A stretch of DNA of 64,000 bases from Tagaea sp. CACIAM 22H2 (GCA_014444615.1 PVXE01000004.1:2768-66767); one strand, 5' to 3'; shown: positions 1-14,873, counted from the stretch's first letter. The notes: generated by a model not told the origin, from the sequence alone. Numbers and translations are program-made.

Positions 1-2357
1 TCTGCGGCGGTATCTATGGCAAGACCAAGATCACCAAGCGCGGCAGTCCACTTATTCTGCCACTCCGCCAACGCGTTCGTCGCCGCCTCAAAGTTTCGCT
101 GTCGATGCGCAACGAGCTTGCCAGCTTCCACAATATCCTTTTCAAGCTGGGACTTCCTGTCGGCTTCGGCCTCATGAAGCCGCAGCTCTTCCGCCACTCG
201 CTCGACAACGATAGGCAGGCCGTCCAATTCCAGTGCACTCACATCGGCACCCAATGCAGCCAGCTCATTAATCAACTGCTGCCTTGCCAACTGCTCTTCA
301 CCACGAGCAGCCTCCAACACACTGTCGGCTTCATCCCGCGCTTCAATGGCCTCGAGCACCCCGTCGCGGCCTTCTAGCCATTCCAGCATTGTCTCAGGCG
401 CTTCCGGCTCAAACGGTGCCCCAGTCCATAGCGCAGTCCAATCGGCTTTCAGTTGCTTGCCTTCCTCCACCAGTCTCTTCTCGTTGTCCTGCACCTGACC
501 AAGAAGCGTTTCTCGCTCATCGACCTTTCGCTTGATCTCGGCGATGCGGCCGGCAGCTTCGGCATGGTCGAAGCGTCGGTCGGCCAGTTCGTCGGCCCTG
601 ACGACGGCAGGCTCGAAGGCACCTGCTAGATCCTCGATCTCGTGCTTGTACTGTACGGCTTGATCCGGCGGGATCGGCTGCCCCTTGATGTGCTTGAGCT
701 TTACCAGCTGCCACACAACGTCGCGGCGATCACGCGTGTCCTTCAGTTCTTCGGCGCTAACCACCAGCTCATCGCGCATCGCTCGCTCAAGGGCGGCAGC
801 GGCACCGTCCAGCTCCTGCTGAACGGAAGCAACCTGCTGCTGCGTTTCAGTCAGCCTCCGCCGCCAGTCATCCTGCCTTTCACGCTGCGCCTGCACCTTG
901 ACCCGCGCAGGTATATTCATGCCGGTCAGCGCCCCTTCATCGCCAACACTGGGTTCAAGTGAACTAAGCCGCCGGGCGACCCGGCTCCTCGCGCTCTTTA
1001 ACGCCTCTGCCGCAGCGCGCACCCGACCGGCGATGTCACCCTGTTCGCGCACACTCTTCAGTACGACGGTCATCCGTGACGCGTCACCCGGATCACCGGC
1101 CTTGGCAAGCTCATCCTTCAGTCCGGCGTGATCTTCCTTCGCTTCCTCCAATTGCCGTTCCTTGCCGGAAACATCGCCCTCCAACTCACCTTTCTGAATG
1201 AGCAGAGATCGCACGACACTAACCTTTGGCCGCGACGGAATGCGCCCGATTAGCGCGTTTGTGTCGCCATCCCGCCAGTCGAGTTCTGCGGCATCATCTT
1301 TCAACTTGCTTTGCGCAGCTTGAAGCTCAGCCTCACGTTTTGGCAGATCAGCCTTTTCAGCGCGAATCTCGATACGCCGTTCGCAGACTTGGCGAACATC
1401 CGCCGCGCGCTCGATAATCGTCGCGTCATAAGTCAGATTTTCCCGCACTTCTTCGGCGCGCCGAAGCTGTTCCCTCAATGTGCCGATACGCGTGGCCACC
1501 TCAGCATCCTTGCGCTCGGACTCGGCGACAAGCCCGGCCGCGTTCTCGGGCAGAGCGATCACGGCACCGAGCTCACCCAAAAGCATGTCTAGCTCTTGCT
1601 TTCGGCACACATCCCGAAACACCCGCCGAATCCGGCTCAGCCGGTTCCGATTAACTGTCGCTTCGCCGATAGCCTTGTCGATATTGCGATAGGCCTCTTC
1701 AGCATCTTCGTTCGTTTTCTTCAACTCGCTCCACTTTGCGGCGCTGAGCGTCTGCTCACGCAGTTCCCGCTGTGCGACCTCAAGCTTATCTTCGGCAACC
1801 GAGAACCTCCGGTGCTTCGCCCGCCGCCCCGGACTCCACAAGCCATCCGCCTCGGTGGACAGTTGGGTCAACCGCTCCCGCAACCCCCCGATACCGGCAC
1901 CCGCTGAGAACAGCACCTGGCCAACGTCGTCCTTGGCATCCAGGATTTCCCGGCCACCGGCCTCTAGGCGCGTATGGTCAAGGCTGAACATGCGCTCGAA
2001 GAACGCCCGGTCCGCGCCGGCAAGGTAGGGGCGAAGTATCGCCTCCCCTCCGGGAACCGACAAACCTTCCGGTCCCAGCAGCGTGTCCTTGTTACCTTTT
2101 CTCCGCAGCACCTCCAGCACATCGCCGTTGTTCTCCAGAACGGCGCCGATCCTCATGCTGCCGTAATCGTGCAAAAAGCCGTATGGCGTTTGCCCGTAGA
2201 TGCCAAACAAAAGATCCGCGATGGCTGACAGCGCCGTAGACTTACCGGCCTCATTCCGGCCGAAGATGATGTGGAAGTCCGACGTGTCGGCAGGCAACTC
2301 GAGCGCCCGCTCGGTGAAGTGGCCATAGCGCAGCAGATCGAGGCGTCGTATCCGCAT
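1..2357 (-). CDS. SbcC/YhaN-like P-loop ATPase (DNA-repair exonuclease ATPase subunit), 5-prime part only; gene runs off the left window edge
   Basis: Reverse-strand reading from ATG at 2357 stays open to position 1 (not in the ORF track because no in-window stop). N-terminus MRIRRLDLLRYGHFTERALELP...FHIIFGRNEAGKSTALSAIADLLFG carries a Walker A (GRNEAGKST) followed by a long coiled-coil-like, E/R/A/L-rich region typical of SbcC/Rad50/YhaN ATPases. Start overlaps the upstream nuclease stop by 4 bp (ATGA). Confidence 0.6.
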   Translation of the reverse strand, partial: MRIRRLDLLRYGHFTERALELPADTSDFHIIFGRNEAGKSTALSAIADLLFGIYGQTPYGFLHDYGSMRIGAVLENNGDVLEVLRRKGNKDTLLGPEGLSVPGGEAILRPYLAGADRAFFERMFSLDHTRLEAGGREILDAKDDVGQVLFSAGAGIGGLRERLTQLSTEADGLWSPGRRAKHRRFSVAEDKLEVAQRELREQTLSAAKWSELKKTNEDAEEAYRNIDKAIGEATVNRNRLSRIRRVFRDVCRKQELDMLLGELGAVIALPENAAGLVAESERKDAEVATRIGTLREQLRRAEEVRENLTYDATIIERAADVRQVCERRIEIRAEKADLPKREAELQAAQSKLKDDAAELDWRDGDTNALIGRIPSRPKVSVVRSLLIQKGELEGDVSGKERQLEEAKEDHAGLKDELAKAGDPGDASRMTVVLKSVREQGDIAGRVRAAAEALKSARSRVARRLSSLEPSVGDEGALTGMNIPARVKVQAQRERQDDWRRRLTETQQQVASVQQELDGAAAALERAMRDELVVSAEELKDTRDRRDVVWQLVKLKHIKGQPIPPDQAVQYKHEIEDLAGAFEPAVVRADELADRRFDHAEAAGRIAEIKRKVDERETLLGQVQDNEKRLVEEGKQLKADWTALWTGAPFEPEAPETMLEWLEGRDGVLEAIEARDEADSVLEAARGEEQLARQQLINELAALGADVSALELDGLPIVVERVAEELRLHEAEADRKSQLEKDIVEAGKLVAHRQRNFEAATNALAEWQNKWTAALGDLGLAIDTAA

Positions 2358-2359
2358 GC

Positions 2360-3631
2360 TCAATCCTCCTGTGCTGTAAGCCGTGCGGACAGATATGGCG
2401 AGACTTCACCGATCAGCGCGGCGTAATCGCCATCAACGGTAACCTTCAACACGCTATCGCCGATGTCGCCGCGAACCTCGTGGGGCAGCTGGCGCACGAG
2501 CTTGCCGATATCGTCCTTGATTCGCGCCAGTAGGTCTACGTCCCCCGTAGCATCCTGCAACAGGCGCTGTAGCTCACCGATCGCGTCTTCACGCTCGGCC
2601 AGCGTTTTTGCATCGACCTTAGGCTGGGTACGAGCGATCACCTTTTCCACCCATGCGACATCATCACCCAAGCGAAGGGCACCGGCACGGGCTTCGGCCA
2701 GCAGCCGGTCCTCGGAAGCAACAAGCTGACCATGAACAGCGGTCCGACCTTCCAAGACAATACGGCAGGCCAGAAGCCGCCCATCGGCTTCATCGGCAGC
2801 GACTTCCACGGCGGTGCGAATTCGATCGATCACCTCACCTAGGTTCTCGGCACTGTCCACTGGAACCGTCAGAACTGCCCACCGCACCACGTCACAGGGA
2901 ATCGTAGTCAGTTCGACGACGTCACGATTCTCGACGCTAACGAGGCATGCACCTTTGACACCGGTTTCGCGGGCATGGCGGCCCTGAAGATTGCCCGGAA
3001 AGACGACGTGGGGATCTTTGCGCAACACGCTCGCCTGATGGACGTGGCCCAAAGCCCAATAATCGTAGCCCTTGTTGATCAAGTCTTCGATGGCGCATGG
3101 AGCGTAGTTCTGGTGGCCCCCCATGCCGCCGAGACCCGTATGCAGCACACCGATGTTGAAGGCACCGGAAATGGGCGCTGGGTATTCGGGCACAAGATTG
3201 TCCGTAACGTCCCGCTGCCGGAAACTCTGCCCATGCAGCACGACCTGCAACTCGCGCAGTTCAAATGTCTGCGGCTTGCGTGTACCGAATACATGCACGT
3301 TATCGGGCAGTTCGAGCCGACGAGTTATCTGGCTTTCGGCATCATGGTTGCCGTGGAGTAGATAGACCGGGATACCCTCTTTGTTGAGTCGGCCCATCTG
3401 TGCAGCGAAGAACAACCCAGTCTTGTAGTCCCGCCAATCGCCGTCATATAGGTCCCCGGCGATAATGAGAAAATCGACCTTTTCCTCAATGGCCTGTCCG
3501 ACCAGCGTAACAAGCGCCTCGCGAGTCGCGGTCCGTACCCGCGCGGCAGCGTTACCTTCCTGGCTTGCAAGGCCCCGCAACGGGCTGTCGAGATGAATGT
3601 CGGCAGCATGGAGAAACCGAAAAGATGTCAT
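2360..3631 (-). CDS. SbcD/Mre11-family metallophosphoesterase nuclease (YhaO-like)
   Basis: 423-aa ORF with calcineurin-like phosphoesterase motifs in canonical order: FLHAADIHLD (motif I), IIAGDLYD (II), LLHGNHD (III), LGHVH (V). Paired with, and translationally coupled to, the downstream ATPase. Confidence 0.8.
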   Translation of the reverse strand: MTSFRFLHAADIHLDSPLRGLASQEGNAAARVRTATREALVTLVGQAIEEKVDFLIIAGDLYDGDWRDYKTGLFFAAQMGRLNKEGIPVYLLHGNHDAESQITRRLELPDNVHVFGTRKPQTFELRELQVVLHGQSFRQRDVTDNLVPEYPAPISGAFNIGVLHTGLGGMGGHQNYAPCAIEDLINKGYDYWALGHVHQASVLRKDPHVVFPGNLQGRHARETGVKGACLVSVENRDVVELTTIPCDVVRWAVLTVPVDSAENLGEVIDRIRTAVEVAADEADGRLLACRIVLEGRTAVHGQLVASEDRLLAEARAGALRLGDDVAWVEKVIARTQPKVDAKTLAEREDAIGELQRLLQDATGDVDLLARIKDDIGKLVRQLPHEVRGDIGDSVLKVTVDGDYAALIGEVSPYLSARLTAQED

Positions 3632-3639
3632 CGGGATAC

Positions 3640-4095
3640 ATCACCCTTTTGGCCGCTCATTGCCATCCCACAGACGATCCAATCTGCACGTTCAGGATCT
3701 AATTTCTTGGCCTATGAGATTCTGATTCTTGTATTTACAAAGCCATCCACGCGACAAAGCCTAAATCGATTGTCCGGCGAAAATTTTTTGAAATCAAGTT
3801 CTTGCTATCTTATACGACTCACTGTCCCGCCACTGACTTCCCAATTCGAGCATCTTCGCTGGTTTGGTAACTGGATCCCTCAAATAGCGTCCAACACCTG
3901 CATTACTGAGGCTGATGACCGTGGCGGTACAATCGACCAGCGGTTCTCGCTCACTTACATCAGCTGCAGCACGCCAAATTCCGTGTACTGATCGAGCGGG
4001 CTCGGTAGTTCTTAGTGGTATACACAAACACGACCAATAATAGTTAAGATCGCAAGGCTGTGAACTACGGCAGGGCGAGTTTCGTGATTTGAATC
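3640..4095. promoter_or_regulatory. AT-rich divergent intergenic/promoter region between the nuclease-ATPase operon and the Hhe-like gene
   Basis: About 450 bp visibly AT-rich compared with flanking coding DNA; no convincing ORF; lies between two divergently transcribed start codons (3631 minus, 4096 plus). Confidence 0.4.
3809..3827 (+). promoter_or_regulatory. T7-class (single-subunit RNAP) promoter-like motif, speculative
   Basis: cTTATACGACTCACTgtcc versus T7 consensus TAATACGACTCACTATAGGG: 13 of 14 contiguous identities in the recognition/specificity region but the +1 to +3 GGG is absent. About 270 bp upstream of the Hhe-like start, same strand. Confidence 0.15.
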
Positions 4096-7000
4096 TTGTC
4101 CAATTGCCTTGCCATTAACGATTCCCATAAACGCCTAGCGCAGTGCCCTCAAATGGATACGCCCCCATCTGCCACGCTCGATCGAATCCCCTCGTTGCTG
4201 GAGGAGGTTCGGCGGCGTCTTGTCGAGACCGGAACGCGAAACCGCCTCATTCATGTCAATCGCAAGGCCCTTAGGACCAATGCGTTAAACGTCGTGAATG
4301 AGCGATCAGATGACGTGTTTTCGATTCTACGAACCGAGGCACGCAGGATGCGATTCCGGGCTCTCGGCAAAGATCGGACGGAAGATGCGGATGGCCCGAT
4401 CCTAGCCGAGGAAACCGTCAACATCCAAATCGAAGCAAGACACCAGGACACGCTTCTCGATACACTTCTCGGTCCCGACGCCCTCCAGAAGCGCCTTCTC
4501 CGACTGGCAGACGAGGCGAAAGTCGCGGAGAATGAGCAAGGCGTAAATATCCTCTATCTCGCGCTCGGCTTCCTCACTTGGTACGAGGATGAGAAATCGA
4601 CGGTCGCGCGCGAAGCGCCGCTCATCCTCCTTCCGGTCGAGTTGGTGCGAAACGAGCGAGGATCAACGTTCGATATTCGCGCTCGCGACGACGATCTGTT
4701 CACGAACCTGCCACTGCAGGAACGACTAAAAGGCGATTTCGGGATACAGCTCCCGGAAATCGAAGAGAGCGACGCGTGGACGCCAGAAAGCTATTTCGAG
4801 CTTGTCGAGGATTGCATCGGCGAGAAGAAACGCTGGAAGATCGACCATGACGGAATCCAACTCGGATTCTTCTCGTTCGCCAAGTTGCTTATGCTCCGGG
4901 ATCTCGACCCCGCTAACTGGCCGGACGGCGCGCTGACCAAACTCGATATCGTCCGCCGGCTGTTGAAAGACGGCTTCGAGCAAGATGCGCCACTTTTCGG
5001 GCCGGAGGATCGGCTCGACGACAAGCTCGATCCCTGCGACATGCTACACGTCGTCGACGCCGACGCGTCGCAGACAAAAGTAATCGAAGAGGTGCGCAAA
5101 GGGCGCAATCTCGTCGTTCAAGGTCCGCCGGGAACGGGTAAGTCGCAGACCATCACGAACATCATCGCAGCTGCGGTCCACGATGGAAAATCGGTCCTGT
5201 TCATGGCCGAGAAAATGGCGGCGCTCGGGGTGGTCCACAACCGGCTCGTCAAGTCGGGGCTCCGGGACGTCTGCCTCGAGCTCCATTCGCGTAACGCCAA
5301 CAAGAAGCTCGTCCTGCAAGAACTGGCGCGAACGCTCAACGCGGCCGGATCGGTCGCTCAGTTGAACAACGATCCGACACAACTCCGCGAGCTCCGCGCC
5401 CAGCTCAACGAATGCGCCGAATTGCTCCATCGCGATGTGCCAGGTCGCGACTACACACCGTTCGAGGTGATTTCCCGGATTGTGAGCTTCATCGGAAAAG
5501 GCACAAGGCCGCCAACTCTGATACGCGAGGGGTTGGCGAGCCTGACGTCGGACGAAGTGGGGACTCTGGCAAAGACGATCCAAATTTACGTTGATCTGCT
5601 CGCCAAGTCCGGCCCTCGGCACGCACACCCGTTTGCCGGCGCGACCGCCGACGATATGCAGCCGACCGATCAACAGCGCCTCGCACTGGAACTGGATGCC
5701 GCCGCCGCCGCCTTCTCAAAATTCGACGCGACGCTCGCTCGGATCTTAGTGTCCGGTGGTTTGCCGCTGCCTTCGACCGTCGGCGACGCAGACCGTATTG
5801 CGGACCTTCTGGGGCGCCTCTCATCCTTGCCAGCGCGGCTAATGCCCTTGTGCGACGAACTCTTCGACAAGGCGGATGACAAACGCTTGCGCGAAGGGCT
5901 CGCCGCCGGTGCAGCTTGGCGTATGGCACGCGATGCAATCGAGAACATTTTCACCGATGCCGCTTGGACGCTTCCGGCGGCCGCGCTGCGGCCCTCGATC
6001 GCGAAAGGCACGTCCTCGTTCTTCGCTCGTGTGTTCGGCGGCTATCGCAGCGCGTGTGCCCAGCTAGCGAGCGTACTGCGGCAACCGCTTCCCAGGGCGT
6101 CGGGAGAGCGACTTCGACTTGTCGATCGCCTCCTCGAAGTCGAAAAACTGCGGACCGCACTGCGGGACGACGAAGACTATATTAAGACCTCGCTCGCCGA
6201 GCACTGGCGCGGCGAGCGCAGCGAATTCAGCGATCTCCACTTAGTCTTGAATTGGCTCACCGCGAACAAGAAAAGCGGTCTTGTGCTCACACGAGAGATG
6301 CTTACTGCGGTTCTGCGGCTTGCGACAGAATCGGCAAGCCATCGCGACGCGATCATGGCGGCCGCAAAGGACGTACGCGCCGCCGTCACAACGGTTCTCG
6401 ACCGTCTTGCCTTCGAACCGCCGATCGATGGCGATAGTTTCGACATTAAGCAAGTTGCCGCGCGTTTTACCTGCATGCGGCGCGAGCTCGCGCGCTATTC
6501 GGAGTGGACGGCCTTGCGCGGAGCGGTACGCCGCCTCGAACAATCCGAGCTTGGTACGCTCGTCGCGGCGATCGACGCGGGGAAGATCGCGCCTGACGAA
6601 GCCTCTGACGAGTTCCTCTATGCGACCGCTGAGGCGCGTTGGCGCGAAATCCGCAACACGATTCCGGCGTTGGCCGCTCTGCGAGAGACCGATCGCCACG
6701 GACTCGTCGCGCGCTTTCAGACTGCCGAACGCGATCGGATCGCCAGCGTCCAAAAGTTGATTCAGGCGAAGCATCTCGAGCAACTCCCGAGGGGTGCGGC
6801 GGGTGAGATGGCCGTCATCCGAGGCGAAATCGCTAAGAAGCGCTCGCATAAGCCAATCCGTAAGCTCTTCGAAGCGGCCGGTTCGATGGTTCGTCGCATC
6901 AAACCAGTCCTACTGATGAGCCCAATCTCGATTGCTCAATTCCTTCCGCCACAAAGGATCAATTTCGACCTACTCGTGATCGATGAGGCCAGTCAGGTCC

Positions 7001-8847
7001 GCCCAGAGGACGCGCTTGGTGCGGTCGCACGCGCCGCGCAGATCGTCGTCGTCGGCGACCAAAAGCAATTGCCGCCAACAAGCTTCTTTGACCGTCTCAC
7101 GGATGATGCGCCGGATGACGGATCAAGCGAGGAAGAAGAAAATGAGGCCCCCCAAGCGGCGAAAGCGACTGAGATGGAAAGCATCCTGACGCTCTGTGAA
7201 GCGCGGGGGCTCGGATCGCGAATGCTCGAGTGGCATTATCGATCGAGGGATCCTTCACTTATCAGCATCTCGAATGTCGAGTTCTACGAAAATCGTCTTG
7301 TCCTGCCACCCTCGCCGCTCCAGCTCGACAGAAACTATGGGCTTTCTTTCAGACGCGTTCCGGGCGCCTACAGCTCGAAGAGTCGCGGCGGTGGACGACC
7401 TGGGACCAATCGGATCGAAGCCGAGGAGATCACCAAGATGATCGCCGCGCATGCGCGGGACTGGCCAGAGCTTTCGCTTGGCGTTGTGGCTTTCTCGAAG
7501 GCGCAAAGCGACATGCTGAATGAGGCGATCGAAGTCGCGCGCCGCAAGGACGCCGTGCTGGACAGCTTCATTCGAGCGAGCACGGCTGAGGAATTCTTTG
7601 TCAAAAACATCGAAAACGTCCAGGGCGATGAGCGCGATGTGATCCTGATAAGCATCGGCTACGGACCCCACGAGCCCAACGGCCGCCTCGCCTCGATGCA
7701 TTTCGGACCGGTGAACGGCGAGGGTGGCGAGCGGCGACTGAATGTCCTATTCAGCAGGGCCCGTGTGCGGTGCATTGCAGTCGCATCGTTCGATCCGTCA
7801 GAAATTGACCCAAGTCGCGCGTCCCGCAACGGTCCGCGTGTACTCAAAAGGTTTCTCGACTTCGCCATCAGCGGGCACCTCGACGAGCGTATCGCAACGG
7901 GCGATGCTGCCGAAAGCCCATTCGAGGACGATGTTGCAGACGTAATCGTATCGCTCGGCTACTGCGCCGATGCTCAGGTTGGCAGCGCCGGCTTCAGGAT
8001 CGATATCGGCGCGCGCCATCCCGATCGGCCGGGGCAATACATCCTGGCCGTCGAATGCGACGGCGCGACATGGCACGGCGCGCTATGGGCGCGCGAACGC
8101 GATCGTCTACGTCAGGATGTTCTCGAGAATCTCGGGTGGCGCTTCCACCGCATCTGGAGCACCGATTGGTTCCATCGTCGCGATCAGGAAATTGCCCGAT
8201 TGCGCGCGGCGCTCGAATCCGCCAACGCCGAAGGCAAGAAGGGCACGTATGTCCGCGGCGCCAACGACCGGACGGATGTATCGATTGAGGATCAAGTTAC
8301 CGACGGCTCGAACGCATCAGAGGAATCTCCGGTGTCTGCTCTGCCACAGATCGAGGTTCCGGCTTATCGGCGCGCCGAAATCCCTGCACCCATCGGCGGT
8401 GAGCCACACGATGCGCCGATTGAAGTGCTAGCTGAGATGGCATTACGGATCATTGAGATAGAGGGGCCTATCCATACCGATGAGATTGCGCGGCGGGTGG
8501 CGGCTGGGTTTGGAAAGAGCAAGGCAGGAGGACGTATCCAGAAAGCCGCGACCGCGGCGCTCGACAAAGTAAGACGCAAGGGTGGAATCATCGCGTTTCA
8601 GGATTTTTGGATGACGCTATCCCAGCAAGCGTCACCGCCTGTGCGCAACCGTGCTGCCGAGTCCACGCCAACGACGAGAGCGATCCATATTTGTCCGCTG
8701 GAAATTCGCGCAGCTGCAGCCCTCATCTCAAGAGAGAGTGGGAATGTTCAAACGGACGAGATGATCCGATCAGTTGCACGTCTACTTGGATTTCAGCGAG
8801 TTGGCGCCGATCTCCAGGCCCAAATAAGTGACGCACTACAATCGTGA
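4096..8847 (+). CDS. Hhe-like defence protein: DUF4011 N-domain + Upf1/Dna2-like SF1 helicase (AAA_11/AAA_12) + Vsr/DUF559-like endonuclease + DUF3320 C-domain
   Basis: 1583 aa. Walker A VVQGPPGTGKSQT; motif II LLVIDEASQV; LEWHYRSRDPSLISISNVEFYENRL; NVQGDERDVILISIGYG; NVLFSRARVRCIAV (SF1 motifs in order, with the long insertion typical of AAA_11). Then GYCADAQVGSAGFRIDIGARHP...ILAVECDGATWHGALWARERDRLRQDVLENLGWRFHRIWSTDWF (DUF559/Vsr-fold endonuclease signature) and a C-terminal IRIIEIEGPIHTDEIARRV...IAFQDFWMT region resembling DUF3320. Alternative start at 4153 (MDTPPSATLDRIPSLLEEVRRRL). Confidence 0.8.
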   Translation: MSNCLAINDSHKRLAQCPQMDTPPSATLDRIPSLLEEVRRRLVETGTRNRLIHVNRKALRTNALNVVNERSDDVFSILRTEARRMRFRALGKDRTEDADGPILAEETVNIQIEARHQDTLLDTLLGPDALQKRLLRLADEAKVAENEQGVNILYLALGFLTWYEDEKSTVAREAPLILLPVELVRNERGSTFDIRARDDDLFTNLPLQERLKGDFGIQLPEIEESDAWTPESYFELVEDCIGEKKRWKIDHDGIQLGFFSFAKLLMLRDLDPANWPDGALTKLDIVRRLLKDGFEQDAPLFGPEDRLDDKLDPCDMLHVVDADASQTKVIEEVRKGRNLVVQGPPGTGKSQTITNIIAAAVHDGKSVLFMAEKMAALGVVHNRLVKSGLRDVCLELHSRNANKKLVLQELARTLNAAGSVAQLNNDPTQLRELRAQLNECAELLHRDVPGRDYTPFEVISRIVSFIGKGTRPPTLIREGLASLTSDEVGTLAKTIQIYVDLLAKSGPRHAHPFAGATADDMQPTDQQRLALELDAAAAAFSKFDATLARILVSGGLPLPSTVGDADRIADLLGRLSSLPARLMPLCDELFDKADDKRLREGLAAGAAWRMARDAIENIFTDAAWTLPAAALRPSIAKGTSSFFARVFGGYRSACAQLASVLRQPLPRASGERLRLVDRLLEVEKLRTALRDDEDYIKTSLAEHWRGERSEFSDLHLVLNWLTANKKSGLVLTREMLTAVLRLATESASHRDAIMAAAKDVRAAVTTVLDRLAFEPPIDGDSFDIKQVAARFTCMRRELARYSEWTALRGAVRRLEQSELGTLVAAIDAGKIAPDEASDEFLYATAEARWREIRNTIPALAALRETDRHGLVARFQTAERDRIASVQKLIQAKHLEQLPRGAAGEMAVIRGEIAKKRSHKPIRKLFEAAGSMVRRIKPVLLMSPISIAQFLPPQRINFDLLVIDEASQVRPEDALGAVARAAQIVVVGDQKQLPPTSFFDRLTDDAPDDGSSEEEENEAPQAAKATEMESILTLCEARGLGSRMLEWHYRSRDPSLISISNVEFYENRLVLPPSPLQLDRNYGLSFRRVPGAYSSKSRGGGRPGTNRIEAEEITKMIAAHARDWPELSLGVVAFSKAQSDMLNEAIEVARRKDAVLDSFIRASTAEEFFVKNIENVQGDERDVILISIGYGPHEPNGRLASMHFGPVNGEGGERRLNVLFSRARVRCIAVASFDPSEIDPSRASRNGPRVLKRFLDFAISGHLDERIATGDAAESPFEDDVADVIVSLGYCADAQVGSAGFRIDIGARHPDRPGQYILAVECDGATWHGALWARERDRLRQDVLENLGWRFHRIWSTDWFHRRDQEIARLRAALESANAEGKKGTYVRGANDRTDVSIEDQVTDGSNASEESPVSALPQIEVPAYRRAEIPAPIGGEPHDAPIEVLAEMALRIIEIEGPIHTDEIARRVAAGFGKSKAGGRIQKAATAALDKVRRKGGIIAFQDFWMTLSQQASPPVRNRAAESTPTTRAIHICPLEIRAAAALISRESGNVQTDEMIRSVARLLGFQRVGADLQAQISDALQS

Positions 8848-8850
8848 TGG

Positions 8851-9300
8851 CATGCTACGAGCTTTGTAGACACGCGGGTTAGCCAATCGCATCTTGGCCT
8901 CGAACACCATCGGGCTCACGTGGCCGATCGTCGAGTGGCGTCGTCACGGATTGTAGAAACGCTCGATTTAGTCGAACACGTCGTCCCTTGCGTCGTCGCG
9001 CGTCCGATAGTCCTTGCGCCCGATGCGTTCGGTCTTGCACGACGAGAAGAAGCTCTCCATCACCGCGTTATCCCAGACATTGCCCGTCCGGCTCATTGAA
9101 CAGACGATGCCCTGATCAGCGAGCAATCGCTGGAACGCTTCGCTGCCGTACTGGTTGCCGCGATTGGAGTGATTCAGCACCAACCTCAGGCGTCCTCGTC
9201 GTCATATCGCCGTCATCGGCGCGTCGATCAGCCGACCACCCGGCACGAGAACAGGCCGAGGACCACGGCCACGTGCCTCCCATCAGTCCCCATGGGACAG
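8851..9300 (-). pseudogene. IS3-family transposase (OrfB, DDE integrase core C-terminus) remnant, frameshifted
   Basis: Minus-strand ORF 8968-9183 reads LNHSNRGNQYGSEAFQRLLADQGIVCSMSRTGNVWDNAVMESFFSSCKTERIGRKDY.TRDDARDDVFD; other frames continue with YIERFYNP and RRHSTIGHVSPMVFEAKMRLANP, the canonical IS3 OrfB C-terminus broken by at least two frameshifts/stops. No intact OrfA/OrfB upstream. Left boundary approximate. Confidence 0.65.
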
Positions 9301-9692
9301 TTTACAAGCGTGCATTCGGCTCATCGTCACTGTGAAAGAGAAGAAGATCAAACTCATGAAACAGACCTCACTGAACGATTCGGCCTAAGAGAAGGTTGAG
9401 TTTGTCATCTCCGAGTTCTCGGTGCGATTCCTCGATCGTTGAGCGAGGCGCGCCTGAAGCGGATGAATTGGACAAATTTGTCCTGCTGCTTGTTGAGCCT
9501 AAGCGGTCGAGAAATAATCATTTTTATCAGATCATCGTCGCAGCACGACAAAAACGTCCAAATTCACTTTCTATTCTTTGGTGGTTTTCAGCCTCTAATT
9601 TCGTTTTTTATCTTTTGACCATGGAGTTTGCTCGATGTTTTCATGATTAGAGGCGCCTGCATTCCGGCGCATAATTTGAACGAGGTCCCAAA

Positions 9693-9932
9693 ATGGAATC
9701 CGATAAAGATAAATCTGAAAAGGTTCCTATCCAGATATGGGTGAAATCAGAAGACAAAGCCTATCTCATGTATTTGAAGCAGAAGCTCCGCTTTAAGCGG
9801 CTAGACGAGCTGTTTAATATCTTGCTTGATGATTTGTTTGAAAGCGAAGGCCTTGAAAGGATTTGTGGTACGAGCAAGGACGATTTGAAGAAACGAAAAG
9901 ATTTTGAATTGAATGTGAAAATAAAAGTTTGA
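9693..9932 (+). CDS. small hypothetical protein, possible ribbon-helix-helix (CopG/MobC-like) DNA-binding fold, in a strongly AT-rich patch
   Basis: 79-aa ORF with a GAGG about 6 nt upstream of the ATG. KVPIQIWVKSEDKAYLMYLKQKL..LDELFNILLDDLF fits a beta-strand then two helices (RHH-like). Codon usage/GC clearly foreign to the rest of the window. Weak call. Confidence 0.35.
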   Translation: MESDKDKSEKVPIQIWVKSEDKAYLMYLKQKLRFKRLDELFNILLDDLFESEGLERICGTSKDDLKKRKDFELNVKIKV

Positions 9933-10364
9933 ATGACTGCCCATAGCCTAATCTTGAGAGTTTTTTGGTTTTTATTTTCCAACCTAATTCTGAATAATTT
10001 TCATTGGCGCGTCGCACACTTGTCGAGATTGCTGGCTAATTGACTGATCGGTAGATTGATTGCGGTGGTCAATCCCGTTTTAGCGACAGTAAGTCGTCGG
10101 CGATAAGCGCATCGATACTGCTGTCCATCGCTATTGCGTTTCTTACTCCAGTCCTTCAGCGATGCCGAACTTGGGTTTGGTATTTGCCATTGTCGCGCAC
10201 GCATCCTCCCACCGGGAAAGCTGGCACCCATCTCGACTTCGCGATTCCATCGTGCATGGCGACGCTAAAGATCCTGCGTCGTACCTCTCGATGCCACAGC
10301 GCATGCTCGCGGATTCGCCAGAAGGCACGATCGCTCTCTTTGCCGGCGCTTCTTCGGCCGCTCT

Positions 10365-10808
10365 TCACGCCATCATAGAAGATGTAGCGGCTTCGATCTC
10401 TCGTACGAGTTCCGGGCGCTTGTCGAGCAAAGCCAGCAGGAGCGCCGCCGAATGGCGCTGGCGGAAATTGGTGTGGTCGAGCGCGTCGAAGCCGCCGGGC
10501 GTGCCCATGATCAACGCGCTCAGGCCGCGAAACGTGAGCGTCTCGTATCGCGCGGCCCGGAGCTTCTTCACGATCCGCCGCGCCGCACGCCGGAGGGCGC
10601 GGGCGTCAGCCGCTTTCATCTCCGCGAGCGCCCGGTCGGCGGCCGCGCCATCTTCGCGCCACATCAGCCCGTCATCGGCGCCTTCGGGAAACCAACCCTT
10701 CACCCTCGCGGTACGCGTCATCCCACCGTAAACGACGGTTATGTCGCGCTCGGCCCGGCGCAGCTTGACACCGGTTACCGGATGAACACGCGTGTGCGGT
10801 GTCCGCAT
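10365..10808 (-). CDS. MqsA-family antitoxin-like HTH protein (degenerate N-terminal zinc-ribbon-like domain + C-terminal XRE HTH)
   Basis: Trimmed from ORF 10365-10871 to internal MRTPHTRV start. C-terminus ...HTNFRQRHSAALLLALLDKRPELVREIE parallels E. coli MqsA ...GNAQPHPSTIKLLRVLDKHPELLNEIR. N-terminal region parallels the MqsA zinc-ribbon region but lacks the Cys ligands. No MqsR-like toxin ORF adjacent. Confidence 0.5.
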   Translation of the reverse strand: MRTPHTRVHPVTGVKLRRAERDITVVYGGMTRTARVKGWFPEGADDGLMWREDGAAADRALAEMKAADARALRRAARRIVKKLRAARYETLTFRGLSALIMGTPGGFDALDHTNFRQRHSAALLLALLDKRPELVREIEAATSSMMA

Positions 10809-10821
10809 TGCGACGCGCCTC

Positions 10822-11148
10822 TCACGCCGCTGTACGCGGTGCGGCGGCAATTCGCGAGAGATCCTTGGCAATGCGCCGCTTGGCGCGCCAAAGGTCGTGG
10901 GTTCCCTGCATGCGTAGAAACATCTCGGCCGAACCGCCGGCGACGGCGCTGAAGCGCAGCGCCATTTCCGGCGAGACCGCCCCCGCGCACGACAAGACGC
11001 GATGCAACGTCTGGCGCCTGACGCCCATCCGAGCCGCCGCGTCGGCCGTCGAGAGCTTCAAATGCTCGTGGACGATTTCATTTATCAACTCGCCTGGATG
11101 CGTCGGTTCGCGGGCGATCTCGCGGGTTTGGAATTTTGTCATCAGCAT
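10822..11148 (-). CDS. HigA-family antitoxin-like XRE-type HTH protein
   Basis: Trimmed to MLMTKF start (ORF track start at 11265 is probably an over-extension). THPGELINEIVHEHLKLSTADAAARMGVRRQTLHRVLSCAGAVSPEMALRFSAVAGGSAEMFLRMQGTHDLW matches the HigA/VapI consensus (xHPGEIL...LGxSxxxLAxxLGVxRxxxxxxxxGKRxITxxxALRLxxxFGxSxEFWLNLQxxYDL). No HigB/RelE-like ORF upstream on the minus strand (checked all frames for about 300 bp). Confidence 0.65.
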   Translation of the reverse strand: MLMTKFQTREIAREPTHPGELINEIVHEHLKLSTADAAARMGVRRQTLHRVLSCAGAVSPEMALRFSAVAGGSAEMFLRMQGTHDLWRAKRRIAKDLSRIAAAPRTAA

Positions 11149-11733
11149 AGCCTCGGCCTCAAGATTACTAGAAGCAGGATTGTGAAACGAGTCCGACACT
11201 GCGGACGGCGGGGCTCGCGCCCGCACCGGTTCTACGACGCCAATATGCATAGGCGCACTTAACATCCCGCGTCGCGGGCCGTCGAAACCCCGGTATCAGC
11301 CCCCTGCGCGGGCGTGTCGAACGGATGCGCGCGGACGCGGACGGGGTCGTCGCACCGGTAAGCCTGGCCGGCACGAAGACCCGGCACGCTCTTCCCGCTG
11401 ACGCCGGACAGGCGAAGCAGCGAAGGGCGAAACCGCACCCCGCACCGGTGCGGGAGATTTCCCAAAAGCCACCCAGCGAACCCCCTTGAGACCCAGCGGG
11501 ACCGTTGGGCGGGTGCCGCGCACCCGCACGCCATTTCCGAAAAAAAACGAGGCGGCGGCGGTTCGGGTCGGGTGGGGAAAAGGGGCGGAAGACCCGAACG
11601 GCGTCGACACGCGATTTTAAGTGCCGAGAGGTTAGCCTCCCGGGTGTTGGGTTCGGGAAACCCGTTCAGGGCGCAATAACGCATCCTGCACTTTTTTGGG
11701 GTGCACGATGCTTGCGAAAGGTCGATTTCGGCG

Positions 11734-12105
11734 ATGGCCAAACATGACCACGAACCCGACTGGGAGGAACTGAAACAGGGCTGGCTTGAGGAGGGTAACC
11801 ACGACGAATTGGGCCTGACCGGATCCGGACGCGGCGCGCGCCAATCCCCGTTCTATTTGCGTCTGTCGGTGCGTCCGGCCCGGCAGCTTGGCCAACTCGC
11901 CGACAAGCGGCCAGAGCCGCTGGACGCACCTGAGGTTCGAGTCGCCTTCTGCGCCCGACTTCCAGCCGAGACGGCGGTGGCGCAGCCGCGCCCGGCGCGC
12001 GAGTTGCGGTCTGTAGGTGCTGTAGGTGCGCGTGCGTGCATTCAATCGGCTTGCGGCCGCAGCATCTTCAGGTTCACCGGTAGCGCTGGGGCTGGCGAGG
12101 CATAA
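11734..12105 (+). CDS. hypothetical protein (123 aa), very uncertain
   Basis: Internal start MAKHDHEPDWEELKQGWLEEGNHDELGLTGSG...; no recognisable motif; high-GC region where spurious ORFs are common. Contains the tandem ctgtaggtg x2. Confidence 0.2.
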   Translation: MAKHDHEPDWEELKQGWLEEGNHDELGLTGSGRGARQSPFYLRLSVRPARQLGQLADKRPEPLDAPEVRVAFCARLPAETAVAQPRPARELRSVGAVGARACIQSACGRSIFRFTGSAGAGEA

Positions 12106-12192
12106 GGCCAGGGCGCTCGCCCGGGAAGGCGCGGAAGCGGTGCCCGATCGCCATCGCCTGGAATAGCCCTGGCGCGCGGCTGGGATGGCTAG

Positions 12193-12450
12193 GTGACGAT
12201 CCCAGCCCCGCAGGCGCGAAGGCGCAACGACGGCGTCGACGAGGCGGTCTGGATCGAACTCTCGGCCCGGCGGCGAATGGCCGAGTGCGCCGAGCTCGCG
12301 CGCATCTGGACGTCCGGTGCGCGCCCGGAAGCCGCGCTGTCGGTCGAGATCGGCGTGGCCGTCGGCATGGTCGCCGCCGCGCTCGACGCGCATGCCGAAA
12401 CTGCCGGAGCTCGGGTGCGGCGGGCCGCGAAAAGCCGCGAACGCGACTGA
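12193..12450 (+). CDS. hypothetical small protein (85 aa), very uncertain
   Basis: ORF MTIPAPQARRRNDGVDEAVWIELSARRRMAECAELARIW...; ends 12 bp before the direct-repeat array; no motif recognised. Confidence 0.15.
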   Translation: MTIPAPQARRRNDGVDEAVWIELSARRRMAECAELARIWTSGARPEAALSVEIGVAVGMVAAALDAHAETAGARVRRAAKSRERD

Positions 12451-12470
12451 TGCGGTAAGAAAGAGGGTTT

Positions 12471-12545
12471 GTCACCGATGTGAATCGGGTTGTCACCTTT
12501 GAATTCGCACGCAAATTCGATAGCGCGTGATTCGCGTTGTCACAG
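12471..12545. repeat. direct repeat copy A (75 bp) with three TTGTCAC motifs
   Basis: gtcaccgatgtgaatcgggttgtcacctttgaattcgcacgcaaattcgatagcgcgtgattcgcgttgtcacag; about 93 percent identical to copy B 152 bp downstream; followed 22 bp later by an inverted GTGACAAA. Confidence 0.8.
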
Positions 12546-12622
12546 GCTGGCGCCGGGTCGACCGCCGGCTGTGACAAATGCGAGGAAAGCCGCGCTTTTC
12601 GCACGCCCGAATTTCGGGTTCT

Positions 12623-12697
12623 GTCACCGATGTGAATCGGGTTGTCGTCATTGAATTCGCACGCAAATTCGATAGCGCATGAATCGCGTTGTCACAG
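12623..12697. repeat. direct repeat copy B (75 bp)
   Basis: gtcaccgatgtgaatcgggttgtcgtcattgaattcgcacgcaaattcgatagcgcatgaatcgcgttgtcacag; followed 22 bp later by GTGACAAA (12721-12728), as for copy A (12571-12578). Confidence 0.8.
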
Positions 12698-13029
12698 TGC
12701 GTTTTGATCGGGTCGCGCGGGTGACAAAGCGCGTATTTCGCGACCTCGGCGGTTTGAGCGGTGCCGGGCTCTTCTATTTTGTTAGTTTGGCGGGCTTGCC
12801 GGGCGATTTTTCGTAGTTCGCCCACATCTCAACCCGCTCGACAGTCATGAACCCAAGCTGAGACTGTGCGGTGGCGTTTTCGACATTCTGGCAATAAGCA
12901 TCACCGATGCGCCGTCCAAATTTTCGTAGTTTCATGTTTTCATAGTTTTTTCCGCCACCTGATCAGTGGTCTCGTGCACTCGACCTTGTTGTGAAGGTGC
13001 CCAAATCGCTGAACTAAAACACATTTAAA

Positions 13030-13057
13030 AGTGAAATTCCTAAAACCAGGAATTTCA
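13030..13057. promoter_or_regulatory. perfect 11-bp inverted repeat (candidate operator or recombinase/RDF binding site) in AT-rich leader upstream of the recombinase gene
   Basis: GTGAAATTCCT aaaacc AGGAATTTCAC; sits in a visibly AT-rich stretch (about 12840-13320) about 265 bp upstream of the recombinase ATG. Confidence 0.45.
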
Positions 13058-13320
13058 CGCGCAGCACGGCGATTTTAAGTCCCTCGGCTGCATGATTAAT
13101 CCATGACTAAGCGTGGAAACGAACTGCTGACTTCGCATCCTGTGGCGCTGCCGCAGGCCGAAGTTGCGGCGCGAGTCCGAAAAACCAGCAAAGATACCGC
13201 CGATCGGATCAATCCTATTGCCCAGAATCGGAAGGCCCGTCTTACCTTACACTCGTCTAATGCTCCCTCGGCTTTTGCGGCTGTGATTTTGGGCGAATTT
13301 CTGCTGAAGCGAATAAAGAG

Positions 13321-14838
13321 ATGATTAAGGCAGTCCTTTACATTCGATCTTCGAAAGATCGCGCGGATGCATCGCCTGCCGCACAGCGACGCGCTTTGCA
13401 GGAGCTTGCTCGACAGCGTCATTTCGCGATTGTTGGAGAATTTGTTGATACGGTCGTCTCCGGAAAGGATGACGACCGACCTGGCTTTCAATCTCTTCTT
13501 CGAGCGATGCGCTCCAAGGATCGAGGTTGGACCCATATTCTTGCTGTAGACACCGCGCGCATCGCTCGCCGCCGGTCGATTGCAATCATTTTTGAAGAAC
13601 AGGAGTGCAAGCGTCAGGGCGTGAGCGTCGTGTACAAGTCGTTGCCTGAAGCGGATCCCGCGATGGAGATGCTTTTAAAAAGCATCTTGCAGGCGATGGA
13701 CGAATGGCATTCGCTGACGTCCAGGGCGAAAGGCGTCGCCGGAATGGCCGAAAATGTTCGCCAAGGTTGGCGGGCGGGCGGCAGAGCGCCGAAAGGCTAC
13801 GTGCTAAAATATGTCAGCACTGGCGCCGTTCGAGATGGCGAACAAGTCATGAAGTCGGTCTTAACACCCGCCGACGATGCGCCTGCCGTCAGTCAATTCT
13901 TGAAGCACAGGTCGAGAGGCATCCGCCGCGGGCGAGCCCTTGCGCTCGCTGGATTGTCTTGGCCACCAACCACAGCAATCGAGGTTGAGCGCAACGCTCA
14001 ACTTTATGCTGGCCACACGACCTGGAATCGTACGGAAGAGCGTTTGAAGGACGGTTACGCAGGCGGCCGTAAATGGCGGCCAGAAGAAGAGTGGGTGACT
14101 AATCGGAACACTCACCCCGCACTAATTACCGATGCTGAAGCACGAGCTATCCTCGATGGATTGAACGCGCGACGCCGCAGCGGAGGCTACCCCGCCCGCC
14201 AGATCTATCTTTTCGGCGGCATGATGACTGCCCCATCGGGGGCGAGATGGTCCGGAGATAGTGGGTACTATCGGCTCGGAAAAACGTCCCGCATCTCCGC
14301 CAAAGCAGTGGAGCAAGCCGTAATGGGGCGGGTGATCGAAGACTTCAAATCCGAACGCATGGTTGATGCGATCATCAATTCGATCCGCCAGGCTTCCGTT
14401 ACCATCGATGTCGGGCAAGACACGTCGAAGATCGAGCGCAAACGTGTCGAGACAGATCGAAAGATCGCGCGACTTACCGAACTCGTCTCAGAGACGCGAA
14501 CACCTGCCCCTTTGCTTCGCCAAATTGAGACTTTGGAAGCCGAACGCGAAGTGATCCTATCGCAGATCGCGCAAGCGAAAGCCCCTAAGGGGCCATCGCT
14601 GGACCTGTCGCATCTCAGACCCAGCGATATTCGAGCAATGCTCGACGATCTTGCGACAGAGCTGACGACATCGACAGCGCCCGAAATGCGCGATCTCGTT
14701 CAGCAGGTGATTGAGAAAGTGGAGTTATGCGCCGAAAGCTTCGAGGCGACGATCCACTATCGACCGCTTCCACTCCCAGGCGAAAGCGGGGTACGGCTGG
14801 CGTCCCCACGGGGATTCGAACCCCGGTCTGCACCGTGA
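13321..14838 (+). CDS. large serine recombinase (resolvase/invertase N-domain + recombinase domain + C-terminal coiled coil)
   Basis: 505 aa; N-terminus MIKAVLYIRSSKD (catalytic Ser in Y-x-R-S-S context), ILAVDTARIARR (resolvase D-R-x-x-R motif); long C-terminal recombinase/coiled-coil region (IERKRVETDRKIARLTELVSETR..LLRQIETLEAERE). Last 41 nt overlap the tRNA-Glu gene on the opposite strand. Confidence 0.8.
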   Translation: MIKAVLYIRSSKDRADASPAAQRRALQELARQRHFAIVGEFVDTVVSGKDDDRPGFQSLLRAMRSKDRGWTHILAVDTARIARRRSIAIIFEEQECKRQGVSVVYKSLPEADPAMEMLLKSILQAMDEWHSLTSRAKGVAGMAENVRQGWRAGGRAPKGYVLKYVSTGAVRDGEQVMKSVLTPADDAPAVSQFLKHRSRGIRRGRALALAGLSWPPTTAIEVERNAQLYAGHTTWNRTEERLKDGYAGGRKWRPEEEWVTNRNTHPALITDAEARAILDGLNARRRSGGYPARQIYLFGGMMTAPSGARWSGDSGYYRLGKTSRISAKAVEQAVMGRVIEDFKSERMVDAIINSIRQASVTIDVGQDTSKIERKRVETDRKIARLTELVSETRTPAPLLRQIETLEAEREVILSQIAQAKAPKGPSLDLSHLRPSDIRAMLDDLATELTTSTAPEMRDLVQQVIEKVELCAESFEATIHYRPLPLPGESGVRLASPRGFEPRSAP

Positions 14839-14873
14839 GAGGGTGCCGTCCTGGGCCTCTAGACGATGGGGAC
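14798..14873 (-). tRNA. tRNA-Glu (anticodon CUC)
   Basis: Reverse complement GTCCCCATCGTCTAGAGGCCCAGGACGGCACCCTCTCACGGTGCAGACCGGGGTTCGAATCCCCGTGGGGACGCCA: 7-bp acceptor stem pairs perfectly, GTCTAGAGGCCCAGGAC D-arm as in bacterial tRNA-Glu, anticodon stem GCACC/GGTGC with loop CTCTCAC (anticodon CTC), T-arm CGGGG-TTCGAAT-CCCCG, encoded CCA. Confidence 0.85.

Follow-up and report, generated by a model that had tools for sequence, protein, structure and literature searches.

A horizontally mobile two-gene cassette for a predicted YhaO/YhaN-type nuclease and ATPase in a Tagaea genomic island, a candidate barrier to foreign DNA

Introduction

Does a gene pair that resembles SbcD/SbcC belong to the core repair equipment of its host, does it form a composite system with the gene beside it, or does it travel between genomes as a unit of its own? 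The question is raised by a stretch of 64,000 nucleotides (nt) from Tagaea sp. CACIAM 22H2 (GCA_014444615.1, PVXE01000004.1:2768-66767), hereafter the window, which carries at its left end a nuclease gene and an ATPase gene transcribed away from a gene for an Hhe-like helicase-nuclease. An earlier sequence-only reading of the window had left both the core and the composite possibility standing. Here we report that the two genes are a self-contained, horizontally mobile cassette of ~4.8 kb with a leader of ~70 nt. Judging from genomic context, we hold with moderate confidence that the cassette is an accessory barrier to foreign DNA, that is, a candidate defence system independent of the Hhe-like gene, and not housekeeping SbcCD.

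Results

Mobility and distribution of the cassette

Relatives of the pair were collected from one genome per species, which yielded at least 453, and neighbourhoods were compared for the best 80, at 58–86% protein identity. These 80 come from Alpha-, Beta- and Gammaproteobacteria, Terriglobia and other Acidobacteriota, Nitrospirota (Nitrospirales), Rhodothermales, Poribacteria, Methylomirabilis and Thermodesulfobacteriota; they span at least seven phyla, and cross-phylum relatives are found among those at 70–86% identity. The nuclease (~424 amino acids, aa) precedes the ATPase in 80 of 80 loci, and the ATPase measures ~1175–1190 aa wherever it is complete and intact. The flanks of the same loci fall into 57 distinct, unrelated contexts. 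A conserved third gene is missing: the best cluster of neighbours occurs in seven of the 80 loci, all from one clade.

Nucleotide comparison places the borders of the mobile unit at the two genes. Cassettes at 79–85% nt identity to the window lineage (loci L004, L005, L007, L008, L085, L089, L091 and L093) have only these two genes in common; their homology reaches no further than 62 bp beyond the nuclease ATG on the upstream side and ends at the ATPase stop on the other. The unit is likewise exactly two genes long when L005 is compared with L004 (94% nt identity) or with a copy from Oceanicaulis (92%). Of the flanking DNA, the leader alone accompanies the two genes, and homology blocks begin 0–62 bp upstream of the ATG. 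A 20-nt inverted repeat (85% complementary) flanks the cassette in L098; as other copies do not conserve the region in which it lies, it is probably due to chance.

Homologues are also carried by plasmids: 233 plasmid records hold one at 35–55% identity, and 66 of these are conjugative. Some copies are broken (L010, L021, L049, L056 and those on Bradyrhizobium plasmids). IMG/VR returned only six loci, the closest of which is the L005 DNA itself, and the pair is not a typical phage gene. A tRNA gene lies within ~10 kb in 9 of the 57 contexts, a count made without background control, judged not clearly above expectation and left unused. Nine of the ten contexts at 79% protein identity or more adjoin defence or mobile-element genes (Table 1).

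Given its occurrence in at least seven phyla, in 57 unrelated contexts and on plasmids, we reject the core role that the sequence-only reading had considered. That reading had also considered a composite locus with the Hhe-like gene, and an obligate composite is not supported either: the Hhe-like gene falls outside the cassette and is co-inherited only in copies that are ~97.5% identical in nt sequence (L084, L098 and L099), and homology at 79–94% nt identity stops at the two-gene borders.

Predicted products of the two genes

The nuclease is predicted to be a Mn-dependent enzyme of the Mre11/SbcD fold. It matches Pfam Metallophos (1.1e-15), and residues D11, H13, D60, N95, H96, H164, H196 and H198, invariant among 37 homologues, align with Mre11 motifs I–V (DxH, GD, GNHD/E, H and GHxH) and with the metal ligands of P. 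furiosus Mre11, in agreement with the complete set of phosphoesterase motifs read earlier from the window. Consistently, the top 50 Protein Data Bank (PDB) matches of its AlphaFold2 (AF2) model (predicted local distance difference test, pLDDT, 78) in Foldseek are all Mre11/SbcD structures, at probability 1.0 and a TM-score of ~0.5–0.6 on the target. By sequence, the nuclease shares 35% identity over 280 aa with S. aureus YhaO (E 1e-51) and matches PDB chains of Mre11/SbcD weakly (E 1e-9 to 4e-3). It does not reach the NCBIfam cut-offs for SbcD (TIGR00619, 54.1 versus 77.65; NF008206, 35.7 versus 450; NF041753 and NF041754, 24 and 19 versus 480 and 750). Scores this far below the SbcD cut-offs make the nuclease a remote relative within the superfamily rather than a true SbcD. 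Exact-sequence look-ups of the nuclease and of protein P0001 matched no record.

Directly downstream on the same strand lies, as had been noted, the gene for a putative SMC/Rad50-like ABC ATPase of the YhaN (AAA_27) family, cut by the left edge of the window. The complete protein in the source genome (Rhodospirillaceae), P0121 (MBC8790516.1), has 1182 aa, which settles the size of the truncated ATPase, and a protein search found it 100% identical across the 785 aa encoded in the window. The fragment matches Pfam AAA_27, the YhaN-type N-terminal head, at 1.7e-75 (250–254 bits versus a cut-off of 22); its close homologues are labelled 'YhaN' by JGI, UniRef and NCBI, and no NCBIfam family matches the fragment. 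Within the window fall the Walker A motif (GRNEAGKST, aa 33-41), the coiled-coil arms and a conserved central region at ~aa 540-660; the C-terminal half of the head, with signature, Walker B and H-loop, lies to the left of it. Among 39 homologues the invariant residues comprise G33, K39, S40 and T41, the signature residues S1089, G1091 and Q1095, D1120 of Walker B and H1152-1153 of the H-loop, and the invariant residues of the coiled coil are densely clustered in the central region.

In the AF2 model of the ATPase (pLDDT 74), the two head halves (1-180 and 1060-1172) flank an all-helical part (183-1053), and Foldseek matched the model to condensin/SMC, Smc5/6, MukB, JetC and Rad50. A sequence search of the PDB with the ATPase gave no match, and no YhaN-family ATPase has a solved structure that is detectable by sequence. 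A CxxC zinc hook is absent from P0121 and from seven other family members. The central region may replace the hook as the point at which the ATPase dimerises.

The two genes are tightly and translationally coupled. The sequence-only reading had the stop and start codons overlap as ATGA; the junction instead has a 2-nt gap and reads, on the minus strand, ...AGGAGGAT TGA GC ATG CGG, with AGGAGG 7 nt 5' of the ATG (order AGGAGG-AT-TGA-GC-ATG). An in-frame TTG at 2363-2361 would overlap the nuclease stop, and gene callers in near-identical loci choose the ATG. All 80 loci have −4 to +8 nt between nuclease stop and ATPase start, and a purine-rich tract precedes the stop.

Comparison with known systems

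The pair belongs to a distinct clade of the YhaO/YhaN (SbcF/SbcE) family with a long, soluble and hook-less ATPase. The earlier assignment to an SbcD/SbcC-type nuclease-ATPase pair is right, and the type is specifically YhaO/YhaN. The cassette resembles SbcE/SbcF (YhaN/YhaO) in its nuclease-then-ATPase order, its AAA_27 head and the lack of a CxxC zinc hook. B. subtilis SbcE (YhaN) is likewise described as being without CxxC and as having a central domain that is conserved in all Gram-positive homologues and hydrophobic in its first half (PMC2811018).

We used as firmicute references the yhaO-yhaN-yhaM genes of L094 and L095 (INPHARED OR845005.1 and OR846761.1). These two records are labelled Staphylococcus/Listeria phages (UNVERIFIED_ORG) and look like host-DNA contigs with a host-type yhaO-yhaN-yhaM; as unverified contigs with a host-type operon, they were rejected as phage genes and kept as firmicute references only. 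The ATPases can be aligned at the heads only, C-terminal heads included, and the cassette ATPase is ~200 aa longer (1182 versus 907–981 aa in firmicutes). It also lacks the hydrophobic centre of SbcE: the maximum 19-residue hydropathy of P0121 is 1.36, versus 2.6–3.0 in firmicutes, and no 19-residue segment reaches 1.6 in P0121 or seven relatives, whereas S. aureus and Listeria YhaN have 21–28 such segments at or above that value in mid-protein. An HD/OB-fold yhaM follows in S. aureus and Listeria, whereas neither yhaM nor a conserved third gene accompanies the cassette in the 80 loci. Finally, firmicute yhaO/yhaN are chromosomal core genes in a conserved operon, whereas the cassette clade is mobile and patchy.

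With SbcCD/Mre11-Rad50 the cassette shares the Mre11 fold with motifs I–V, an organisation in two coupled genes and, presumably, an ATP-gated nuclease activity on DNA ends and hairpins; it differs in lacking a zinc hook, in its weak sequence similarity and in a genomic behaviour that is accessory rather than housekeeping. Gabija, OLD, PARIS, Septu, Lamassu and Wadjet resemble it in combining an ABC/SMC-type ATPase sensor with a nuclease, and the cassette too sits in defence islands and mobile elements, often adjoining such systems. Its nuclease is a calcineurin-like phosphoesterase, however, in place of the TOPRIM, HNH or Cap4 domains of these ABC/SMC-ATPase defence modules, and no third subunit (kleisin or LmuC-like) was found with it in the 80 loci.

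The low-GC island

The pair lies inside a low-GC island and does not, as had been proposed, abut it. The G+C content (GC) is 0.587 for positions 1-14800 versus 0.655 for 14900-64000. At 0.59–0.60, the pair is close to the Hhe-like gene (0.597), and its GC and third-codon-position GC (GC3) equal those of that gene and fall below core values. The island measures at least 14.8 kb, with its left end outside the window. At the right edge, the large recombinase (505 aa; Pfam Resolvase and Recombinase) ends inside the tRNA-Glu gene, which was called by ARAGORN (Table 1). Window positions 1-14600 hold no tRNA-Glu-derived repeat, direct or inverted, of at least 12 nt, so the left attachment (att) site is not in the window.

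The left flank was judged from the near-identical loci L084 and L098. Near-identical copies of the pair together with the Hhe-like gene occur in L084 (98% nt identity), L098 and L099 (both 97.5%). L098 aligns to the window from position 1 to exactly 8847 (L098 position 4785), where the Hhe-like stop codon ends, and a recombination or insertion junction therefore sits precisely at the gene end. Past the Hhe-like gene, L098 has unrelated genes (helix-turn-helix (HTH), NERD, SNase and IMS polymerase). Past the ATPase, its low-GC DNA continues for ~6 kb, with open reading frames (ORFs) of 356, 93, 262, 296 and 125 aa and an rve_3 fragment, which makes the pair internal to the island; a mannitol dehydrogenase gene at core GC follows this stretch.

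The part of the island that the window does not have in common with L098 is 8848-13300, in which GC falls to 0.47 at 9–10 kb. Its ORFs gave no PADLOC matches and weak Pfam matches below the cut-off, to MqsA_antitoxin at 10365-10871(-) and HTH_31 at 10822-11265(-).

The Hhe-like neighbour and other helicases

The Hhe-like gene is indeed divergent from the pair and combines DUF4011, a superfamily 1 (SF1) helicase core, an MTES_1575 restriction endonuclease (REase) domain and DUF3320. It scores 1739 bits with the PADLOC model PDC-S37, 652 bits with Hhe and 1285 with the NCBIfam model 'anti-phage protein ProA', where it stays under the cut-off of 1500; rather than a true Hhe, it is probably a relative of the PDC-S37/ProA type. 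The spacer between pair and Hhe-like gene is AT-rich, as had been read, whereas its length is not the 450 bp given then: it spans 464 bp up to the Hhe-like TTG (4096) or 521 bp up to the ATG (4153), the start that gene callers choose in the 97–98% identical loci L084 and L098. A promoter/terminator scan of the spacer gave one site each, equal to the shuffle expectation, and an Rfam scan of spacer and leader matched no family. We regard the spacer as context and not as a proven shared regulatory region.

A DUF4011-type gene adjoins the pair in four independent contexts, namely the window, L004, L020 and L063, with differing subfamilies and orientations, and a loose association of the pair with helicase-nucleases of this type is possible. 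More broadly, an SF1 helicase or helicase-nuclease is found in the flanks of 9 of the 57 contexts, in seven of them within 1.6 kb. Such adjacency is compatible with clustering in defence islands and too weak to establish a composite system.

A wider neighbourhood is conserved in a Bradyrhizobium/Rhodospirillales clade (L071 8665-19862; also L072, L078, L079, L081 and L082). It has a DprA/SLOG-like gene upstream of the cassette and, downstream, a sigma70-region-4 HTH protein, a 218-aa protein and a 1142-aa fusion of M78 peptidase, UvrD helicase and PD-(D/E)XK nuclease.

Flanking genes in other copies

The neighbours of the closest copies and of selected plasmid copies are collected in Table 1. 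The plasmid copies beside BREX-1 and Shedu have 45–47% identity. When 112 neighbours from 29 contexts were scanned as a pool, GmrSD/PDC-S06 and AAA_13/PrrC-like models were matched three times each, and GajB, PDC-S37/Hhe, HEC-05 and a DRT-type model twice each; the pool also held ~7 transposases or integrases and several housekeeping genes.

Gabija or OLD as a fixed partner was considered and rejected, the neighbours across loci not being homologous to one another; this is co-location with no conserved module. Gabija-like pairs lie directly beside the cassette on unrelated replicons (L001/L007 4042-9593; L096 625-8001; L097 12907-16376), accompanied in L001/L007 and L096 by AbiEi/AbiEii, and the Gabija proteins that were tested are not close homologues. 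The layout of L091 (4331-21205) resembles a composite transposon: three IS3-family copies enclose the cassette together with two unannotated genes (430 and 1085 aa) and a WYL/WCX regulator. Homologous opposite-strand modules of a small ORF and a serine recombinase follow the cassette in L004 (14980-16787) and L093 (15043-17206); the two recombinases are 66% identical, and L093 has an additional DUF2924 gene.

Table 1. Features of the window, with coordinates counted from its first letter, and neighbours of the cassette in the window and in related copies (R-M, restriction-modification)
Feature	Position	Strand	Description
ATPase gene	1-2357	-	start ATG 2357-2355; 785 of 1182 codons inside window, rest beyond left edge
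Coupling junction	2355-2371	-	AGGAGG 2370-2365; nuclease stop TGA 2362-2360; 2-nt gap GC; ATPase ATG 2357-2355
Nuclease gene	2360-3631	-	423 aa; phosphoesterase domain, capping domain, C-terminal helical region ~aa 341-419
Leader	3632-3700	-	~70 nt 5' of nuclease ATG; partly conserved among cassette copies
Divergent spacer, nuclease/Hhe-like gene	3632-4152	.	AT-rich, GC 0.478 versus 0.64 for the window
Hhe-like gene	4096 (TTG) or 4153 (ATG)-8847	+	1564-1583 aa; DUF4011, SF1 helicase core, MTES_1575 REase, DUF3320
Right island edge	13321-14873	.	serine recombinase 13321-14838 (+) overlapping tRNA-Glu(CTC) 14798-14873 (-)
Window neighbours			Hhe-like gene, serine recombinase, tRNA-Glu
L004 neighbours			different Hhe-like gene (1815 aa), serine recombinase
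Oceanicaulis neighbours			GajA/GajB (Gabija), AbiEi/AbiEii, HicB
L085 neighbours			AAA_13 ATPase, AAA_16 (STAND-like) protein, MvaI/BcnI+Vsr+Dcm type II R-M, PLD nuclease
L089 neighbours			OLD-family nuclease, rve_3 integrase fragment, DUF927
L091 neighbours			WYL/WCX regulator, three IS3 copies
L093 neighbours			type I R-M, serine recombinase
L008 neighbours			ArdC, MobA relaxase, TraG coupling protein
L005 neighbours			IMG/VR-predicted viral region; N6_N4 methylase nearby
L009 neighbours			uninformative
Plasmid copy			BREX-1 with embedded Shedu upstream; ATPase+helicase pair downstream
Plasmid copy			upstream: Shedu, Gabija-like ATP-dependent endonuclease + UvrD helicase, AbiE
Plasmid copy			methylase, DEAD helicase, ATPases upstream
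Conjugative Sphingobium plasmid copy			ParB, zincin (ArdC-like) protein, RelE/ParE toxin nearby

Discussion

Because of the intact catalytic residues and the biochemistry of Mre11-Rad50 and SbcCD, we propose the following mechanism for the cassette. ATPase dimers, joined through the conserved central region, would bind ATP and clamp DNA ends or hairpins, and would then position a nuclease dimer for cutting. The targets may be ends, hairpins and replication intermediates of phages or plasmids. Core SbcCD is reported to act against conjugation as a barrier (bioRxiv 10.64898/2026.07.06.735840), which provides a precedent for the barrier role suggested here, and phage N15 is reported to need TelN for the inhibition of Mre11-Rad50 (10.1101/2025.06.15.659773). 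Extended to the whole clade, the idea becomes more tentative: the long, soluble, hook-less YhaO/YhaN clade may be an unrecognised anti-phage or anti-plasmid immunity of Mre11-Rad50 type that is spreading across phyla as a 4.8-kb cassette. Cooperation of the clade with SF1 helicase-nucleases such as Hhe is a weaker extension still.

Several observations weigh against a role in defence. No PADLOC 2.0.0 or NCBIfam 20.0 anti-phage model matches the pair; the hits are weak and generic, and the best PADLOC scores are all partial (an Effector model, 3.6e-5; PtuA, 2.8e-5, range 1e-4 to 1e-5; LmuB, 1.1e-8), those of PtuA and LmuB being marginal and in the head domain. A literature search on YhaN/YhaO, AAA_27, SbcD, PDC-S37 and ProA/DUF4011 found no link of the YhaN/YhaO family to defence, and SbcE/SbcF of B. 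subtilis, the sole relatives to have been characterised, act in double-strand break (DSB) repair and competence (PMC2811018). The survey of neighbours took in two flanking genes per side and lacked a matched background control. In the 28 more distant contexts, at 58–66% identity, the neighbours are mostly housekeeping or metabolic genes, with a few OLD, UvrD and DUF4143 genes. In three clades synteny is held across several species, as if the pair were stably retained. Cargo for repair or mutagenesis (umuD or an IMS-family polymerase) accompanies the pair in some contexts, and conjugation genes beside ArdC do so in others, as would be expected if the mobile element itself were the beneficiary.

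These last points lead to a serious rival, which we nevertheless consider rather unlikely, namely that the cassette is accessory repair or recombination cargo. It would then process ends in the manner of SbcEF, to the advantage of the host or the carrier element, for instance by mending restriction-induced breaks or by processing incoming DNA while a conjugative element establishes itself, and would not attack foreign DNA. The role of SbcE/SbcF argues for it, as do the ArdC, MobA relaxase and TraG genes adjoining the L008 copy, the ArdC-like zincin and ParB near the copy on the conjugative Sphingobium plasmid, the umuD or IMS-family polymerase nearby in two contexts, the mostly housekeeping surroundings of relatives at 58–66% identity and the synteny kept across species in three clades. 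Against this, many copies lie in non-conjugative islands and are directly flanked by Gabija, AbiE, R-M, BREX, Shedu or OLD, the precise shuffling of the two-gene cassette between islands is typical of defence genes, and the pseudogenisation of some copies suggests that the pair is dispensable. That the pair is simply the host's housekeeping SbcCD or YhaON is highly improbable and already contradicted. The product names given by NCBI ('DNA repair exonuclease' and 'DNA double-strand break repair Rad50 ATPase') would suit such a role, but the SbcD equivalog scores lie far under their cut-offs, the ATPase has no zinc hook, the GC of the pair is below genome level, relatives at 70–86% protein identity are spread across phyla, the flanks of the 57 contexts are unrelated, and homologues reside on plasmids.

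A composite system with the adjacent SF1 helicase-nuclease, in which the Mre11-Rad50-type complex would start end cutting and the helicase-nuclease would degrade processively, is improbable, if less so than the housekeeping role. The pair and the Hhe-like gene do form one block of ~97.5% nt identity (L084, L098 and L099) whose border coincides exactly with the Hhe-like 3' end despite a differing flank. DUF4011-type neighbours recur in the four independent contexts, SF1 helicases or helicase-nucleases flank 9 of 57 (seven at 1.6 kb or less), and the M78-UvrD-PD-(D/E)XK fusion is conserved in a seven-species clade. However, ~85% of the contexts have no such helicase neighbour, and where present the helicases belong to different, non-orthologous families in divergent, co-directional or convergent orientation. 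Furthermore, homology at 79–94% nt identity ends at the borders of the cassette, and PADLOC and NCBIfam model Hhe-type proteins as acting alone.

Such genes in islands that are labelled 'DNA repair exonuclease' or 'Rad50 ATPase' should not be taken as core repair. Mre11-Rad50/SbcCD is the textbook housekeeping end processor, whereas the cassette clade is patchy, cross-phylum, plasmid-borne and flanked by defence genes, as a defence gene would be. If the reading of the clade as an immune system is correct, an end- and hairpin-processing nuclease of repair type has been repurposed as mobile immunity; should the cassette restrict phages or plasmids, it would add a branch of Mre11-Rad50 type to SMC-based immunity, beside Wadjet and Lamassu. 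It would also offer a tractable model, made up of two proteins, of the way in which a nuclease that senses ends distinguishes foreign DNA from self.

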